DNA of 64,000 bases from contig JAFTPS010000014.1 in the NCBI GenBank assembly GCA_017463185.1, positions 40,514-104,513 on the forward strand, written 5' to 3'. The DNA is from Alphaproteobacteria bacterium. GTDB lineage: Bacteria > Pseudomonadota > Alphaproteobacteria > Rs-D84. Below are positions 1,653 to 62,009 of this stretch, one piece after another. How positions within the stretch are numbered: the first letter of the stretch is position 1; the number at the start of each line of letters is the position of its first letter. The notes beneath the pieces are model-generated. The model was not told where the DNA came from and did no database searches. It saw only the letters and a list, made by a program, of their open reading frames with translations. The translations under genes and the position numbers were made by a program.

Positions 1653-1681
1653 TTGATTTTACATATCAAAATTTATACAAT
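1653..1681 (+). promoter_or_regulatory. Sigma70-like promoter TTGATT-17-TACAAT
   Basis: Hexamers at 1653..1658 and 1676..1681 with a 17-nt spacer. Same architecture as the promoter at 61745..61773. Confidence 0.5.
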
Positions 1682-1687
1682 AAAAAC

Positions 1688-1921
1688 TGAAACCATAGGG
1701 ATATGGCTTCGGGACCTTCAAAAGTCCAATATTCAAGGAGCGCACGCGATGTGTGCGTTGATATCCGCGTAATGCGGCGCATTTTGCGCTGCTTTTTATG
1801 ACCCCCGCGTTGTCGGGGTGCTGTGGGGCATATAACAGGGTTCGCCCGAAACCCCACAGGGTCATTTCCTTGAATATGATTTTTGAACACCCCGACCGCC
1901 AAATCTCTGGCGGTCTTTTTT
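1688..1921 (+). ncRNA. Structured 5' leader or sRNA, R-class copy R1, ending in a strong intrinsic terminator
   Basis: 5' hairpin CCATA-GGGA-TATGG followed by CTTCGGGACC (1693..1716). Long-range helix ATTCAAGGA (1731..1739) / TCCTTGAAT (1867..1875). Hairpin CCCCG/CGGGG (1803..1818). Terminator GACCGCC-N8-GGCGGTC-T6 (1894..1921), about 20 nt before the ATG at 1943. Homologous blocks occur at 61780..62009. Confidence 0.55.
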
Positions 1922-5852: not shown

Positions 5853-5926
5853 GGCCTGGTGGCAGAGTGGTTATGCAGAGGACTGCAAATCCTTGTATGC
5901 CGGTTCGATTCCGACCCAGGCCTCCA
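5853..5926 (+). tRNA. tRNA-Cys (anticodon GCA), CCA encoded
   Basis: Acceptor stem GGCCTGG/CCAGGCC. Anticodon stem GAGGA/TCCTT around the loop CTGCAAA. T-loop TTCGATT. 4-nt variable loop. Short D stem with a G:A pair as in other tRNA-Cys. One C:A mismatch in the T stem. Confidence 0.88.
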
Positions 5927-12648: not shown

Positions 12649-12676
12649 AAAAAATGCGCCATTGGCGCATTTTTTT
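12649..12676. terminator. Palindromic terminator, family 1
   Basis: AAAAAATGCGCCAtTGGCGCATTTTTTT. Overlaps the stop codon of 12675..13367. Confidence 0.75.
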
Positions 12677-13367
12677 ATTCCGTCCAATAACAATTCCCGG
12701 TATATGTCCCCGAACCTGCATCATCGGAAAAACTTGTTCCCAATGGAATATAACAACTGGTAATACCACCAGATGTTAGCCCAGATGTAGTTCCGGGTTC
12801 TGGACATTCGCTACAGTCACCGTTTTCTAAATAATATCCCTTTGCACAGGCATCGACATAACCATCTATACATCTATACTCTCCTGAACCAACACCATCT
12901 GGTGCACAACGACAAAACGGGTAATTATTATATATCGTCGCCGTTTGTTCCCATTTTTTGCAATCTGTTGGGTCTACTTTAAAATAACACCTATTGTCAT
13001 TACTAATATAGTTAAAAAAACCAACTGTACTTCCATCTGTGCTGCCCAACAAAAAGCCATTTGATGGCGCGACACAAAAACTGGTCCCCAGACATCCAAC
13101 GTACAACGTTGAATATGGCTGTTCAATTCCACCCATGGACAGATTGTTGTACGATGTACAACCCGATATATTACCGCATTTTGCTTGTCCCCCACACGAA
13201 TAACACACACCTGTATCATTATTTTTTATACAGGAAAAATCACTGTTATACGAAATATGCGACAATGCCGATTGGTCCGGCGAAGCAGTTTGGACCCCCG
13301 CCCCCCAACCCAGCCCTAAATACATTTCAAAACAGCAAAAACAAATTATTAAAAAACTAAATTTCAT
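12675..13367 (-). CDS. Secreted Cys-rich protein with conserved C-terminal CxxCP...CY...CYWTE module
   Basis: Signal peptide, 20+ Cys. C-terminus CAKGYYLENGDCSECPEPGTTSGLTSGGITSCYIPLGTSFSDDAGSGTYTGNCYWTE is alignable with the C-termini of 40915..42051 and 42391..42966. Confidence 0.8.
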   Translation of the reverse strand: MKFSFLIICFCCFEMYLGLGWGAGVQTASPDQSALSHISYNSDFSCIKNNDTGVCYSCGGQAKCGNISGCTSYNNLSMGGIEQPYSTLYVGCLGTSFCVAPSNGFLLGSTDGSTVGFFNYISNDNRCYFKVDPTDCKKWEQTATIYNNYPFCRCAPDGVGSGEYRCIDGYVDACAKGYYLENGDCSECPEPGTTSGLTSGGITSCYIPLGTSFSDDAGSGTYTGNCYWTE

Positions 13368-13653
13368 TTCAATCCTCCTGTTGTTTTAGAAAAACAAAAA
13401 CCACTGAAAAAAATTTCAAGTGGTTGGAGGTTCGAAACAATTATAGAGAATTGTGGGCTTATTTATATATATCGCCACCCTCCAACCCAGATGGATTGGC
13501 AGGTTTCAGGCACACACACAAAAAACACACCACTCAGATAACTTGCTTTATCTGGTGGTGTCGAATTTCATATTTATGCCTGTATTTCTATGTTGCACGA
13601 CGCAACATCTCTATAACGGGTTTCGACACCCCGCCTGTGGAATTCCCACCGGC
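13368..13653 (-). promoter_or_regulatory. Structured attenuator-like 5' leader, class-2 copy B
   Basis: P1 GGTTGGAGG (13422..13430) / CCTCCAACC (13479..13487). P0 CCAACCC (13482..13488) / GGATTGG (13493..13499). Terminator-like CCAC..GTGG plus a T-run (13396..13425). Extra internal terminator at 13520..13561. Promoter TTGCGT-17-TATAAT at 13660..13688. Confidence 0.55.
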
Positions 13654-21019: not shown

Positions 21020-21046
21020 AAATCCCGCATGCGCGGGATTTTTTTT
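21018..21046. terminator. Palindromic terminator, family 2
   Basis: AAAAATCCCGCATGCGCGGGATTTTTTTT between convergent genes. Confidence 0.8.
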
Positions 21047-22955
21047 ACATTAGTTTTTCCACAGCATTCAACGTAATGCCACTGGAATTTTTACAACTAT
21101 TTATATCTAATTTTATTTTCACTTTGCGACATGGCGCATAACGCAAATTATTGTCGTTATTATAGTTCGGATTTTTACCCACACATTGCCTGTAATCTAT
21201 ATCATTTTCTTTACCCGTTGGAACCGAACCACTGGCACAACTACACCATATCTCGCCAAAGCCTGAGGCGGTGCTTTCACTACTGATAACATTGCCATTT
21301 TTTGAGGCGGTTAAATAATCTTTTACTGCGTTGGCACGCTGTTCTGATAATGCTTGATTATACTTTTCACTGCCCGTACCATCCGTATACCCAACGATTT
21401 CCAATTTGCATTCCGAAGCACCCGCTTCTTTCAAAGCTGATACAAAAGTATCAAAAGAAGCCTCTGCGGACGGTGTTAAATCAGACTCACTTATTTCAAA
21501 TAACGAATCCGCCGGCAACTCTATTACTTTGATAACTGGCGTGGTCGCTGTCGTCGTAATTGACGTTCCCGACTTTTTCACACATTTTCCATCGCTATCA
21601 ATTGTATGTGTATCGTCATCACACGTGCACGATTGCATATCGCCGCTGATTGTAAATCCATCAATGCAATCACAATCGCAATTATTTTTTACAATCAAAT
21701 GACTGCCATCCGACGGGGTACATTTTGGCGTACACGTGTCCGGTTTTTCAATACACTTTTTCTGGTTCTCGTCCCACAATGGCACATTATCCGGACATTT
21801 GCACGCCCCCCCAACCACGGTCTGTTTATCCGCACACTTATCACACTGCATAGTATCTGTATTATAAATCGCATTACCACTGCATGTGCAATCCGGATGA
21901 TTTGTCCCCGTCGTACCCGATGGGCATTTTTTTACCGCGGGTTTTATTTCCTGAACATCTTTTTCCAGTTTTTCTGATATCTCTTCATACTTTTCATTTA
22001 TCTCGTCGCTGCGTTCCTTGGGCGCATTACGATTCAGAACGATATTTCCAACCGCGCTGCCAATTGCACCAACGGCCGCCAAAATCATACCCTGTTTTTT
22101 CTTGTCGGCGGTCTCTTTCTTTTGTTGTGCCCATGCGGCGGCATCCGCGGATGTATCGTCCATCAATGCACGCGCAACCGATGTGTATGCCCCGCCCGTC
22201 TTGCCGACCGCAACATCATCATACAGGCCAGATTCCGCCTTATCTAATACTACCTCGGCCTCTATCCCCGGGCGCATCCCCAGGGCTTCTTTACGAACTT
22301 TTAAATCTGCCGCCAATGCTTTGTATTCCGTCACCAGTGCCGTCAATTCATTCCCACCGGGTAATTCTATGCCCGTTTCGCCACCTTGAACATTTTTGCC
22401 ACCACCATAATTACATACAAATGTGGACAGGTATGCTTTCATATCGCGTTCGGCATCATCGTCTGCGGATTGTTCGGCTGACGCGGACATAGTCTGCATC
22501 AAACCAATCCCGGTCGCACCAATACCAACCGCACCCAACATTTTATTTGTGGTGGATTGTTCCTTTTCTTTCATTTTTTTGGCGTTATCTTTTAATTCGG
22601 CAATTTTCTTTTCTGAATCCGCCTTTGATAATTTTTTCTTTGCGCCGGATTTCGCCGTATCGGACGAATTATCATCGGAATCAGAATCTTCTTCGTCTGA
22701 TTCTTCATCATCTGATTCTTCTTCATCACCCTGCTCTTCATCTGTTTCTGTGGCATCTTCACCAGTATCATCGGTTTCCGTCCCGTCAGCCTCATCATCG
22801 GATGGCTCGTCCTGTCCGTCGCTCATATCACTATCACTGGACACACCACTATCGGTACTTTCATCCGTGACGGCAACCGCATCAAAAGACACAGAAACAA
22901 TCCCCGCCCCACCAATACACAGGCACATAACAAACATCATAAAAAATTTTAACAT
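21045..22955 (-). CDS. Chimeric surface protein: acidic region, glycine-zipper segments, EGF-like Cys-rich repeats, OmpA-like C-terminal domain
   Basis: Start trimmed to MLKFFMMFVMCLCIGG (GGGGAGAG RBS). D/E/S-rich for about 100 aa. CPSGTTG..CTCSG..CDKC..CKCP.. repeats. ..LEIVGYTDGTGSEKYNQALSEQRANAVKDYL is OmpA/MotB-like. Confidence 0.8.
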   Translation of the reverse strand: MLKFFMMFVMCLCIGGAGIVSVSFDAVAVTDESTDSGVSSDSDMSDGQDEPSDDEADGTETDDTGEDATETDEEQGDEEESDDEESDEEDSDSDDNSSDTAKSGAKKKLSKADSEKKIAELKDNAKKMKEKEQSTTNKMLGAVGIGATGIGLMQTMSASAEQSADDDAERDMKAYLSTFVCNYGGGKNVQGGETGIELPGGNELTALVTEYKALAADLKVRKEALGMRPGIEAEVVLDKAESGLYDDVAVGKTGGAYTSVARALMDDTSADAAAWAQQKKETADKKKQGMILAAVGAIGSAVGNIVLNRNAPKERSDEINEKYEEISEKLEKDVQEIKPAVKKCPSGTTGTNHPDCTCSGNAIYNTDTMQCDKCADKQTVVGGACKCPDNVPLWDENQKKCIEKPDTCTPKCTPSDGSHLIVKNNCDCDCIDGFTISGDMQSCTCDDDTHTIDSDGKCVKKSGTSITTTATTPVIKVIELPADSLFEISESDLTPSAEASFDTFVSALKEAGASECKLEIVGYTDGTGSEKYNQALSEQRANAVKDYLTASKNGNVISSESTASGFGEIWCSCASGSVPTGKENDIDYRQCVGKNPNYNNDNNLRYAPCRKVKIKLDINSCKNSSGITLNAVEKLM

Positions 22956-23163
22956 TGCGACTCTCCCCAATAACGAAGCGTTAAAAACAAAACCACCTGA
23001 TTCATTCAAGTGGCAGGAGATTCGTAACTATCTTAGCAGTAAATAGCATTGCGCTTTCAGTATATGACGCAATTCTCCTGCCTATTTGGACAGGAGTTTT
23101 TTTACGTTCCACGAACGCTGCTAAAACAAGGGTTACGAAGCCCAATACCCAATCCTGGGTATC
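22956..23163 (-). promoter_or_regulatory. Structured attenuator-like 5' leader, class-2 copy C
   Basis: P1 GGCAGGAGA (23012..23020) / TCTCCTGCC (23074..23082). P0 CTCCTG (23075..23080) / CAGGAG (23091..23096). Terminator-like CCAC..GTGG plus a T-run (22985..23013). Extended -10 TGtTATAGT at 23170..23178. Confidence 0.55.
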
Positions 23164-23208
23164 ACAGATACTATAACATTATTTTTTTATTTTAACTAGG
23201 ATAATTTT

Positions 23209-25179
23209 TCAATCACGTCTTTTATCGGCAAATACCAACATCATCAATATTGAAAACACCAGTATTATTGCCATTGTGCGATACATTCCAACCATACGAT
23301 AAATTGTGTCGTGCGCCCCCCAAACGAATCCATCCAACACACCCGACGCACCAACCGGCAAAGCTGATATAACATTTCCATCCGCCCCAACAAATGCACT
23401 TATCCCCGAATAATTCGCACGCACAACCGGCACACCAGATTCTATGGCATAGCGACGCACCATATCTAAATGCTGGTATGTGCCCGGGGTATTGCCAAAC
23501 CAATTATCATTTGTAATATTGATAATTGCATTTGGCGTTGGGGCACCACGCGGAATCAACGAATCGGAAAAAATAATTTCATAACAAATTGCCGGCGCAA
23601 ACATAACATCACCAACCGATATCAATTCTGCCCCCGCCCCACGTGCCAGATTCACTGGTGCCGGCAAAATCCCCAATGGACGATATTCACCAAACGGCAC
23701 CAGGTGCGATTTATTATAAACCTGGGTTATTTCACCATCACCACCCGCCATAATCATAGAATTATAAAACCGACCATCCAAATATGTTGTTGCACCAACA
23801 ACTATATCCACGCCCACCGCGGTCGCCAGTGGCATCTTGTCCCCGTCCACAATCACAAACGGATATGTCGTTTCGGGAAAGATTATTAAATCTGGATTGC
23901 CCGCAACGGTCGCCAAACCAAATAAATTTCGTAAATTATATTCCGCATTTTGTATTGCCGCTTCGCGGTCATGTGTTGCCTTTTGCGTTTGTGATGCGCC
24001 CGGTTGTACCATACGAATAAGTACCCCCGCTTCATCCACACCACGGGACGCAACCGATATATTACGTCCACCCATATATGCACCAAAAATCGCCATTACA
24101 ATAAATACAACAAACGCACCAAAAACCGATTTTGATTTACGATTGACTAAAACCTCAACCACACTGGCAATCAAACCTATAATTATAAATGTTAAACCCA
24201 ATGCCCCCCATACCGACATAGAATTGGCAATCATCGGCCACGGCATAGAAATATTTGCAATCGGATTCCACGGAAACCCCGTAAACACCCATTCCCGCAA
24301 CCATAAAACCAGCGTCCACACGGCCGCAAACAAAAACGCCCTTTGCGCCGGATTCCGGCGTATACACGCATTCGCAACAAACGGCCAACTAAATATCAAC
24401 ACACCACCAATACCAATTCCAATAATTCCCGGCACGGTCCAAATTGCAAATTGCGCGGTCAATTCCGGCACTACATAAATAGAATGTAAAACCCACCAAA
24501 AATTAGCAATCGCATACATCGCACCAAATGGCGCAACGCGCAAAAATGATTTCCAAAAACCACCCAATTTTTTATTCCGCACGGTCAGCCAATACGCCCC
24601 CGCAATACCAATTATGGTCCACCACCATTGATAAAATGGTGCAAATCCAAACACCGCAACCCCACCAAACACTGCGTACAGCGCGTATTGCCAAAAACCG
24701 TTTTCACGAATTTTTAATCGTCTGAACAATGAAAAATCACATGCACACGAATCGAATTCATACGGATTTTTTATCCCCAATCTTTCCAAGATTGCAACCT
24801 CTTTCCTTTCCATTTTATTTGCATCACGATTGTTCAAATGGTCAAATCCCTGTAAATGCAACATCCCGTGTACCACCATATGTGCAGTGTGTTCCGCAAC
24901 CGATATACCGGCGGCCGCGGCCTCGCGAATAACGGTATCTAATGATATATAAATATCACCCAACAAAATATCATCCCCCAATTCAAACGACAAAACATTT
25001 GTTGGTTTGTCCATATTGCGGTACTGTTTATTCAGCGCATGAATTTCCACATCATCGGTCAATATTATAGACACCTCTGAATCGTTGTGTACGGGCAAAA
25101 CCGCCGTACAGGCGATTTTTTCAAAATCAATTTTATATTTTTTCCAACGCTTGTCGTTATAGTTTACATATACTTTCAT
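23209..25179 (-). CDS. ybeY-lnt: Single-ORF fusion of YbeY (rRNA maturation endoribonuclease) and Lnt (apolipoprotein N-acyltransferase)
   Basis: aa 1-140 carry HGMLHLQGFDH. From about aa 150 there are Lnt-like TM helices and a nitrilase-like domain (..IIFPETTYPF.., ..PAICYEIIF..). No stop codon between the two parts. Confidence 0.8.
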   Translation of the reverse strand: MKVYVNYNDKRWKKYKIDFEKIACTAVLPVHNDSEVSIILTDDVEIHALNKQYRNMDKPTNVLSFELGDDILLGDIYISLDTVIREAAAAGISVAEHTAHMVVHGMLHLQGFDHLNNRDANKMERKEVAILERLGIKNPYEFDSCACDFSLFRRLKIRENGFWQYALYAVFGGVAVFGFAPFYQWWWTIIGIAGAYWLTVRNKKLGGFWKSFLRVAPFGAMYAIANFWWVLHSIYVVPELTAQFAIWTVPGIIGIGIGGVLIFSWPFVANACIRRNPAQRAFLFAAVWTLVLWLREWVFTGFPWNPIANISMPWPMIANSMSVWGALGLTFIIIGLIASVVEVLVNRKSKSVFGAFVVFIVMAIFGAYMGGRNISVASRGVDEAGVLIRMVQPGASQTQKATHDREAAIQNAEYNLRNLFGLATVAGNPDLIIFPETTYPFVIVDGDKMPLATAVGVDIVVGATTYLDGRFYNSMIMAGGDGEITQVYNKSHLVPFGEYRPLGILPAPVNLARGAGAELISVGDVMFAPAICYEIIFSDSLIPRGAPTPNAIINITNDNWFGNTPGTYQHLDMVRRYAIESGVPVVRANYSGISAFVGADGNVISALPVGASGVLDGFVWGAHDTIYRMVGMYRTMAIILVFSILMMLVFADKRRD

Positions 25180-53399: not shown

Positions 53400-53520
53400 A
53401 CGTGCCTGTGGCAATCATGGGCCATATATTGCATATTTACATCGCGGATAACAATTCGCACCGCGAACACTGTACCAAAACAAAGGACTTTCTGAGGCCC
53501 GAACCCACATCCCTATGGGC
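53400..53520 (-). ncRNA. Third, truncated copy (R3) of the R-class leader 5' module, with no downstream CDS
   Basis: The minus strand reads CCCATAGGGATGTGGGTTCGGGCC (53496..53519), versus CCATAGGGATATGGCTTCGGGACC (R1) and CCATAGGGATATGGGTTCGGGGC (R2). It also shares GGTGCGAAtT and TTATCCGCG blocks. No obvious promoter. Confidence 0.4.
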
Positions 53521-53529
53521 AATGTTTGC

Positions 53530-53562
53530 AAAAAAAATACCGGCATCATGTCGGTATTTTTT
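53530..53562. terminator. Palindromic terminator
   Basis: AAAAAAAATACCGgcatcatgtCGGTATTTTTT. Confidence 0.7.
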
Positions 53563-61744: not shown

Positions 61745-61773
61745 TTGATTCTGGAAAATCAAACTGATATAAT
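61745..61773 (+). promoter_or_regulatory. Consensus-like promoter TTGATT-17-TATAAT
   Basis: Hexamers at 61745..61750 and 61768..61773. Confidence 0.55.
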
Positions 61774-61779
61774 ACACTT

Positions 61780-62009
61780 GAATCCATAGGGATATGGGTT
61801 CGGGGCTGTAGCAAGCCTGTCTTATCCGGTGCGAAATCAGGTGCGTCGTTAATCCGATACACTGTCCATAATTTTGCATCGTTATTTATCCCTGACTTAA
61901 TAAGTCGGGGGGCTGTTCGCCATACAACAGGACTATTCCAAAAGCAACAGAATCAACGATAAGACGATTTGCTAACTCCCCGACCGTCATTCCTGTGGCG
62001 GTTATTTTT
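61780..62009 (+). ncRNA. Structured 5' leader or sRNA, R-class copy R2
   Basis: 5' module CCATAGGGATATGGGTTCGGGGC (61784..61806). Hairpin CCCTGACTT-aat-AAGTCGGGG (61890..61910). Conserved GCTGT..CATAnAACAGG block. Terminator GACCGTC-N8-GGCGGTT-ATTTTT (61982..62009), 20 nt before the ATG. Confidence 0.55.

Follow-up and report, generated by a model that had tools for sequence, protein, structure and literature searches.

What lies at positions 22956-23198 of the minus strand of this alphaproteobacterial contig, between the gene for an OmpA-like surface protein and its upstream neighbor: a folded RNA, a DNA-level repeat, or coding sequence whose start has been misplaced? The stretch analyzed (the window) is 64 kb long, and the region in question, leader copy C, is read throughout in the RNA sense. 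Copies A and B are the other members of the same family in the window; copy C is called winC in alignments, and L-numbers designate other loci. Comparative analysis confirmed that the copy C region is a genuine folded RNA leader of about 180 nt with a terminator at its 3' end. It belongs to an apparently undescribed family of structured 5' leader RNAs of Candidatus (Ca.) Enterousia (Alphaproteobacteria, order Rs-D84) and, judged from modeled folds, probably controls the downstream surface-protein gene by transcription attenuation. An earlier sequence-only reading had likewise favored a structured RNA leader over a DNA repeat or coding sequence. The features it described were found in place, all on the minus strand, and covariation in several helices supports its choice.

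The order Rs-D84, to which Ca. Enterousia belongs, consists of uncultured Alphaproteobacteria of the gut and rumen with genomes below 1 Mb and an almost unknown biology, and the Ca. Enterousia clade lacks a tricarboxylic acid cycle and a respiratory chain (PMC12306168). The literature searched on Enterousia and Rs-D84 contained nothing on RNA elements. Rfam 15 (4227 models) found only a tRNA (5853-5923) in the whole window; searched at E ≤ 10, positions 22900-23260 gave only snoRNA and RyhB noise (11-16 bits) and no known family.

Architecture of the leader

The elements of copy C are as follows, from promoter to regulated gene.

23170-23178, minus strand: extended -10-like promoter element TGTTATAGT, a consensus match only
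23144-23163, minus strand: Pa, the 5'-terminal hairpin GAUACCCA-gga-UGGGUAUU; pairing is kept and sequence varies
23130-23143, minus strand: 5h module GGGCUUCGUAACCC, that is GGG-CU-UCGUAAC-CC, a local GGG/CCC stem whose loop carries LR5
23132-23139, minus strand: LR5, UUCGUAAC, in the 5h loop, pairing with LR3
23118-23128, minus strand: 5' strand of LR2, UGUUUUAGCAG, pairing with 23029-23039
23105-23117, minus strand: Pb, hairpin CGUUC-gug-GAACG, followed by an A-run (23097-23104)
23089-23096, minus strand: X, CUCCUGUC, the 5' arm of P1 and anti-antiterminator strand, followed by a 6-nt loop and then GGCAGGAG
23074-23082, minus strand: Y, GGCAGGAGA, the shared switching strand (3' arm of P1 and 5' arm of P0)
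23048-23073, minus strand: P2, hairpin AUUGCGU...GCGCAAU with the conserved AU-rich loop AUAUAYUGAAA
23029-23047, minus strand: 5' arm (CUAU), loop and part of the 3' arm of P3; the closing G is at 23028
23029-23039, minus strand: 3' strand of LR2, CUGCUAAGAUA, spanning the P3 loop and part of the P3 3' arm
23021-23028, minus strand: LR3, GUUACGAA, pairing with the 5h loop (LR5)
23012-23020, minus strand: X', UCUCCUGCC, the 3' arm of P0 (antiterminator); its last two C also belong to the base of the terminator stem
22983-23013, minus strand: intrinsic terminator CCACUUGA-augaa-UCAGGUGG with U-run UUUUGUUUUU, from a terminator scan
22961-22968, minus strand: Shine-Dalgarno (SD)-like sequence GGGGAGAG, 6 nt upstream of the ATG
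22953-22955, minus strand: start codon ATG
21045-22955, minus strand: putative regulated gene, encoding a secreted protein of 636 amino acids that combines acidic low-complexity sequence, a Cys-rich part and an OmpA domain at its C-terminus

Nearly every family member has a TATAAT-like box whose distance upstream of Pa is constant, and transcription is predicted to start about 6-8 nt downstream of the -10 box, at the base of Pa. Nearly all members likewise end as copy C does, with an intrinsic terminator, here a 9-pair stem (23014-22992) followed by TTTGTTTTT. Y is complementary both to X upstream (P1, 8 bp) and to X' downstream (P0, 9 bp); because both helices use Y, P1 and P0 are mutually exclusive. 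Copy C carries this triple complementarity directly before its intrinsic terminator (104 bits with the covariance model described below). It also has the family's 5h module, GGGG-YG-UCNNNNC-CC, with a loop complementary to the 6-7 nt just 5' of X'. Its geometry is that of A and B, as had been claimed: the gap from Y to X' measures 46 nt in A, 60 in B and 51 in C. Folded as a single sequence, copy C has a z-score of -4.3.

Distribution of the family

The exact core CTCCNNCCNCTTGAA occurs three times in the window (13415, 23005 and 43013), always on the minus strand and upstream of a secreted-protein gene. Scanning a collection of species-representative genomes with the pattern GGAG-N(38-68)-GAAYCTCCNNCCRCTTGAA gave 81 loci. 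At 41 of these an upstream segment is complementary to X', and the sources are Ca. Enterousia or gut and rumen metagenome-assembled genomes assigned to "Alphaproteobacteria". The remaining matches are due to chance. Many of them (NN = GA) are tRNA genes read on the opposite strand, in Anaerolineae among other taxa, and the sole match in viral contigs, L090, is not a family member.

Covariance model R1 was built from 26 members; it is trimmed to 155 positions and omits Pa. It finds exactly three members in the window (B, 113 bits; C, 104; A, 81). Such scores go beyond chance: copy C itself belongs to the training set, but L086 (101 bits) and L152 (108) do not and score about as high. Model R1 recovers 50 members across 43 Enterousia-type genome loci, tandem arrays included, and 17 further members in JGI metagenome contigs. 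In L152 the P2 loop has CGAAA, and a metagenome scan that required TGAAW there, with a pyrimidine as the first N, was too strict and gave no match.

Several copies depart from the usual arrangement. In A-type copies (window 13520-13600, minus strand; L016, L024, L028, L044 and L070) an insertion of about 85 nt, which folds into a long hairpin CAGGCAUAAAUAUG...CACACACAAAAAACAC, separates Pb from P1, which are otherwise adjacent. Tandem arrays of two or three leaders are present at L018:2339-3000 (-), L048:3902-4236 (-), L067:4334-4881 (+), L042:5140-5500 (-) and L163:4712-5048 (+). A degenerate partial copy, GGUUGGGAUGUGUGAAUAUAUUGAAUAAGCACA, directly follows a complete leader at L068:1000-1130 (-), which suggests that leader duplicates decay.

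Covariation and long-range helices

Alignment A1 comprises 39 non-redundant members, in which 35 pairs were scored. Counting the structure as a whole, 93.5% of cells are paired, and both sides change in 19 of the 35 pairs; none of 500 shuffles matched these values. When partners were slid by 1-3 columns, pairing fell to 32-47%. MAFFT sets the variable P2 and LR2 out of register, and per-sequence tests rather than column counts were used. A conserved structured domain with covariation, as expected of a riboswitch, is present.

The helices with the clearest covariation include long-range ones. In LR, the 5h-loop heptamer (UCNNNNC) and the heptamer immediately before X' (GNNNNGA) are complementary without exception. 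They come as twelve different heptamer pairs, and 43 of the 49 instances are perfect. In the 39 sequences LR is 100% paired, five of its six pairs change on both sides, and one position shows four pair types. The 5h stem covaries as well (GGGG/CCCY, GAGG/CCUC, GGAG/CUCC, UAGU/ACUG, GGGA/UCCC). LR2 joins the linker that follows 5h to the loop and 3' arm of P3; every member forms a helix of 6-14 bp here, from unrelated sequences. The median longest LR2 helix is 8.5 for self pairs vs 4.5 for non-self pairs, of which only 2.4% reach the self median. 5h and P3 are thus reciprocal, the loop of each hairpin pairing with the 3' flank of the other.

Six of the seven pairs of Pa change on both sides. 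Most copies have a hairpin at the Pb position, with differing stems visible in the alignments (GUCC/GGAC, GUCU/AGAC, GUUGC/GCAAC). P3 pair 270:288 is U-A in 23 sequences and A-U in 15, P2 pair 93:134 (RNAalifold) is GC in 9, UA in 7 and CG in 5, and terminator pair 306:328 covaries between A-U and G-C. RNAalifold, given no input structure, recovers LR, P1, P2 and the terminator, together with an extension of LR in which the 5h GGG pairs with CUC of X'.

P1 and P0 behave differently. X, Y and X' are nearly invariant in the family (CUCCAAYC, GGUUGGAGG and CCUCCAACC). P1 is 97% paired and P0 100% paired in the 39 sequences, a perfection that is partly a selection criterion, as A1 kept only instances with a complementary upstream Y. 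Pairs 202:217 and 203:216 of P1 are changed on both sides only in winC and L027. The ninth pair of P0 (222:297), which was not selected for, is G-C in 36 sequences, A-U in 3 and U-A in L042b, with G.U in L083. The strongest proof of RNA structure is therefore provided by LR, LR2, Pa, 5h, P2 and P3, and not by P0 and P1. The sequence-only reading had ranked the P0/P1 changes of copy C as its main argument for RNA structure; this ranking does not hold, as those changes are a single event in one locus lineage and the decisive covariation lies in helices that it did not describe.

The pairing code of copy C

Copy C has CA/UG where the family has UU/AA. Its versions of the three strands, CUCCUG, GGCAGGAGA and UCUCCUGCC, occur in only four sequences: the window, L086, L027 and L152. 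The neighboring YbeY-Lnt protein is 93% identical in L086 and 61% identical in L027, where the locus is syntenic; L152 is a metagenome contig. An orthologous, ybeY-lnt-flanked locus is shown for the window, L086 and L027 only. Both arms of P0 and P1 had been said to change in a compensatory way. Concerted changes in X, Y and X' do keep both helices, but, being seen at one orthologous locus and in L152, they count as one evolutionary event. The swap is old and maintained, yet lineage-specific.

Elsewhere the leaders of winC and L027 have diverged with their pairing intact. The Pa stem is entirely different and still complementary. LR is UCGUAAC/GUUACGA in winC vs UCAGAAC/GUUCUGA in L027; a C-G pair of P2 is replaced by U-A; and LR2 is AGCAG/CUGCU vs AACGG/CCGUU, the full strands in L027 being UAUUUUAACGG and CCGUUAAGAUA. 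Indels between the two are confined to loops.

When four ybeY-lnt orthologs were compared, the leader and its OmpA gene were present only in L086. In L087 and L089, ybeY-lnt stands directly next to a convergent RHH gene (RHH_4), with neither OmpA gene nor leader. In L088 a different OmpA gene (CarbopepD_reg_2 plus OmpA) lies between ybeY-lnt and RHH_4, without a leader. Relative to some relatives, the OmpA-like gene and its leader are an insertion.

Start codon and coding potential

The open reading frame (ORF) predicted mechanically at this locus begins with a TTG at 23009, inside the leader. The sequence-only reading had rejected this start for the ATG at 22955, with a proper ribosome binding site and a signal peptide, and both judgments stand. 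GGGGAGAG lies 6 nt upstream of the ATG, the encoded N-terminus, MLKFFMMFVMCLCIGGAG, is signal-peptide-like, and the homologous ATG is the start called in L086. The TTG is part of an invariant CUUGAA motif. In L086 the U-run is 1 nt shorter, which puts the TTG out of frame and leaves a TGA in the frame of the ATG; because this 1-nt indel in a 93% ortholog breaks the frame, the TTG start is spurious. Copy B shows the same: its mechanical start at 43017 (minus strand) is the TTG of CUUGAA, but the gene truly starts with the ATG at 42966, which follows AAAGGAGG. The invariant CUUGAA motif is an annotation trap, having produced spurious TTG starts at two places in this window, 23009 and 43017.

These observations bear on the view that there is no RNA element here at all, and that the region consists of DNA-level repeats or operator sites or else encodes the N-terminus of the OmpA-like protein from 23009. 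The ORF from the TTG is indeed open in the window, and, as DNA, the X, Y and X' arms form inverted repeats. Such a view is nevertheless hardly tenable in the face of compensatory changes in six helices, the long-range ones included, the frame-breaking indel and in-frame TGA of the ortholog, the occurrence of the same TTG motif before unrelated genes, and loop indels that are not multiples of three.

Proposed switch

The minimum-energy fold of A, B and C contains a long LR/LR2 helix, P1 and the terminator. The calculated energies are -16.5 kcal/mol for the P0 duplex and -11.6 kcal/mol for the P1 hairpin. Without its two basal G-C pairs the terminator stem weakens from -9.4 to -3.5 kcal/mol, and the U-run is no longer abutted; those two basal C (23012-23013) are all that P0 and the terminator share. 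P1 (-11.6) and the terminator gain (-5.9) together about equal P0 (-16.5), so that the switch is roughly balanced.

The following model is proposed. By default the leader would be OFF: the nested fold predicted by RNAfold and RNAalifold (LR/LR2 helix, P1, terminator) would form, and transcription would stop at 22983-22992. In the ON state 5h and P3 would be closed and their loops would make the LR and LR2 contacts, giving a double pseudoknot. Y would quit X and pair with X', with P0 stacked on LR through the continuous 3' strand 23028-23012, and P0 would take the two basal G-C pairs of the terminator, allowing RNA polymerase to read into the OmpA-like gene. The 5h and P3 stems covary yet are absent from the nested fold, which argues for a second, selected fold. 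As the two states are close in energy, an effector that stabilizes the knotted fold would decide the outcome in favor of read-through. We lean to a small ligand or ion as this effector, with an RNA-binding protein as the alternative. Copy C would follow the same switching logic with its private X/Y/X' code (CA/UG, not UU/AA).

The opposite logic can be drawn from the same strands. In most terminator-type riboswitches the strand shared with the antiterminator sits in an aptamer helix, as Y does in P1, and RNAalifold predicts P1 inside a junction closed by LR/LR2; an effector could therefore stabilize the P1 fold and cause termination, Y pairing with X' and the gene being expressed when no effector is bound. 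Such an OFF switch seems unlikely, as P1 plus terminator is already the unassisted minimum-energy fold in all three window copies and the covariation of 5h and P3 outside the nested fold argues for a selected knotted fold.

Several points weigh against attenuation by an effector-stabilized knotted fold. P1 and P0 show little independent covariation (the C-type event and pair 9), because X, Y and X' are almost invariant, and this invariance could instead mark recognition by a protein or another RNA. The 2-nt overlap of P0 and the terminator is smaller than in most characterized riboswitches, and the two helices may stack rather than compete. LR and LR2 fit both states, so that their role in switching belongs to the model. 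The downstream genes have no common metabolic theme that points to a ligand, and we infer termination, read-through and any effector alike. Finally, tandem and orphan copies occur (L018, three; L048, two; L067, three; L163, two), which suggests that the terminated RNA may have a role of its own.

There are two further alternatives. A dedicated RNA-binding protein might recognize the invariant GGUUGGAGG/CCUCCAACC helix or the P2 loop and stabilize P0, in which case the RNA would serve as a regulon tag instead of sensing a metabolite, and copy C would escape the protein or use another one. X, Y, X', the P2 loop AUAUAUUGAAUAAG and CUUGAA are conserved beyond the needs of pairing, which speaks for such a protein, and there are many copies per genome of about 0.9 Mb before functionally related surface proteins (PMC12306168). 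Protein-dependent antitermination is nonetheless the less probable course of events. No protein emerged as a candidate; some copies are followed by genes for small proteins, but these lack conservation between loci and do not occur in the window. In size and in knotting, the RNA far exceeds the antiterminator targets that proteins are known to bind. Paired hexaloops of the ANTAR type are also absent, the P1 loops being of 4-10 nt. A trans-acting factor encoded downstream was rejected as a candidate, since the small non-secreted proteins fall into unrelated groups and have no homolog in the window.

Alternatively, the terminated transcript of about 180 nt could itself be the product, a trans-acting small RNA that uses the exposed CCUCC-containing X' or GGAGG-containing Y, with attenuation secondary. 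Each tandem copy has its own -10 box and terminator; an upstream copy, with no gene directly after it, is therefore an orphan whose only product would be a short terminated RNA. X' can also pair with the downstream SD sequence (-8.8 kcal/mol in copy C) and is a possible anti-SD. Most copies, however, stand 15-50 nt before a same-strand SD and ATG, and the private X/Y/X' code of copy C argues that pairing in cis is under selection; a small RNA as the main product is very unlikely.

A broader scenario is doubtful but worth stating. The leaders may represent a riboswitch class not seen before, in which the doubly pseudoknotted aptamer responds to a signal from the gut or the host and turns on a whole repertoire of variable Cys-rich surface proteins in a bacterium with less than 1 Mb of genome. 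As nearly all copies have the same X/Y/X' code, terminated leaders might cross-talk in trans, and the CA/UG code of copy C would insulate the OmpA-like gene; jointly this would amount to RNA-based coordination of surface variation.

Genes associated with the leaders

The protein encoded downstream of copy C matches Pfam OmpA (PF00691) at residues 485-568 (E = 1.4e-16; 61.1 bits vs a cut-off of 27.2). In most leader copies an SD and ATG follow on the same strand after 15-50 nt. The genes that follow mostly encode Cys-rich proteins with signal peptides, and an N-terminal hydrophobic stretch is present in 27 of 40. With three copies in these 64 kb and copies in every sampled relative, mostly before secreted Cys-rich proteins, the leader is a plausible main control point for cell-surface presentation in Rs-D84. 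As an orphan riboswitch candidate it offers about 70 examples, an unusual reciprocal double pseudoknot and, in copy C, a natural orthogonal variant that amounts to a ready-made compensatory-mutation experiment.

Many of the putatively regulated proteins are small, Cys-rich and secreted (window 12675-13367 and 42391-42966, both minus strand; L007, L014, L016, L023, L043, L044 and L084). They share the C-terminal motif ...CP..G.T.G....T.CY.P.GT.FSD..G.G.Y...CYY.. and look like a variable surface-protein family; one of them has a weak Ephrin_rec_like match.

The upstream neighbor of copy C (23209-25179, minus strand, with its stop at 23209) encodes a 656-amino-acid fusion of YbeY endoribonuclease and apolipoprotein N-acyltransferase (Lnt). 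The architecture YbeY, LNT_N, CN_hydrolase is found in all of the best 120 of 851 homologs (E ≤ 1e-50). Over the whole window the plus strand has 16,573 C vs 11,660 G, most genes are on the minus strand, and the GC content is 44%.

Comparison with known systems

A second group of leaders, the R class, is found in the window at 1675-1880 (+), 61763-61968 (+) and possibly 53421-53535 (-), and at L014:6191-6446. These leaders have a -10 box followed by a conserved 5' element, CCAUAGGGAUAUGG-NUUCGGGR, and no U-run terminator. Rfam does not recognize them, and model R1 gives them only 11 bits (E = 0.2). The 5' module of copy C had been thought to resemble that of the R class and to link the two. 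The Pa hairpin and the module are present, and both kinds of leader are multi-copy in the same genome, with a -10 box, a hairpin and a GGNUUCG...CC element. A link is not supported, as the score is so low and the 12-mer resemblance, with 2 mismatches, is expected 2.3 times per window by chance. The R-class hairpin CCAUAGGGAUAUGG is conserved in sequence whereas Pa is variable, and R-class leaders lack the CUCCAACC/GGUUGGAGG elements as well as the U-run terminator. Pairing of the R-class loop with 3' sequence occurs in R-class copies R1 and R3 but not R2. Because the module is also found in A (13618-13631) and B (43159-43172) and pairs with the 3' half, it is an integral part of the copy C family.

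In ANTAR targets two hairpins with hexaloops (A1, G4) lie in tandem, and the terminator overlaps the second. The leader was rejected as such a target, since the P1 loop is conserved in neither length nor sequence and no second hexaloop hairpin is found at the terminator.

The three-way competition of X with Y (P1), Y with X' (P0) and X' with the terminator is comparable to the 1:2, 2:3 and 3:4 pairings of trp-type attenuators. Unlike those, the leader has no leader peptide: no ORF is common to the copies, ORFs after Y vary in frame and length, and loop indels break frames. About 50 nt with two hairpins separate the equivalents of segments 2 and 3, and there is a large additional 5' sensor domain. 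An extension of Y into the terminator (UGGUUGG/CCAACCA) is present in about 30-40% of copies, which is near chance, and was not used as evidence.

Like a T-box, the leader is a large multi-helix element that would be OFF by default and in which an effector is proposed to stabilize the antiterminator; GGAGGGUGGUGA after Y loosely resembles the T-box sequence GGGUGGUAC. A T-box was rejected, as there is no match to RF00230, no specifier loop or UGGN bulge was identified, and the genes downstream encode surface proteins rather than aminoacyl-tRNA synthetases or amino-acid functions.

The closest likeness is to transcriptional riboswitches with pseudoknotted aptamers and intrinsic terminators, such as ZTP/pfl, fluoride/crcB, c-di-GMP-II and preQ1-III. 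As in those, the leader lies in the 5' untranslated region just after the promoter and has a conserved, covarying multi-helix fold. Long-range pairings between loops and strands lie beside the expression platform, one strand is common to two exclusive helices, and the terminator is followed by an SD sequence and ATG. It differs from them in matching none of the 4227 Rfam models, in its reciprocal arrangement of two hairpins whose loops pair crosswise with each other's 3' flanks, in an antiterminator/terminator overlap of only 2 nt, and in preceding genes for variable Cys-rich surface proteins and not those of a metabolic or transport pathway. The family is a well-supported new orphan cis-regulatory RNA, probably a riboswitch-like attenuator. 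Systems of this kind are known, but in this one both the fold and the regulon are out of the ordinary.

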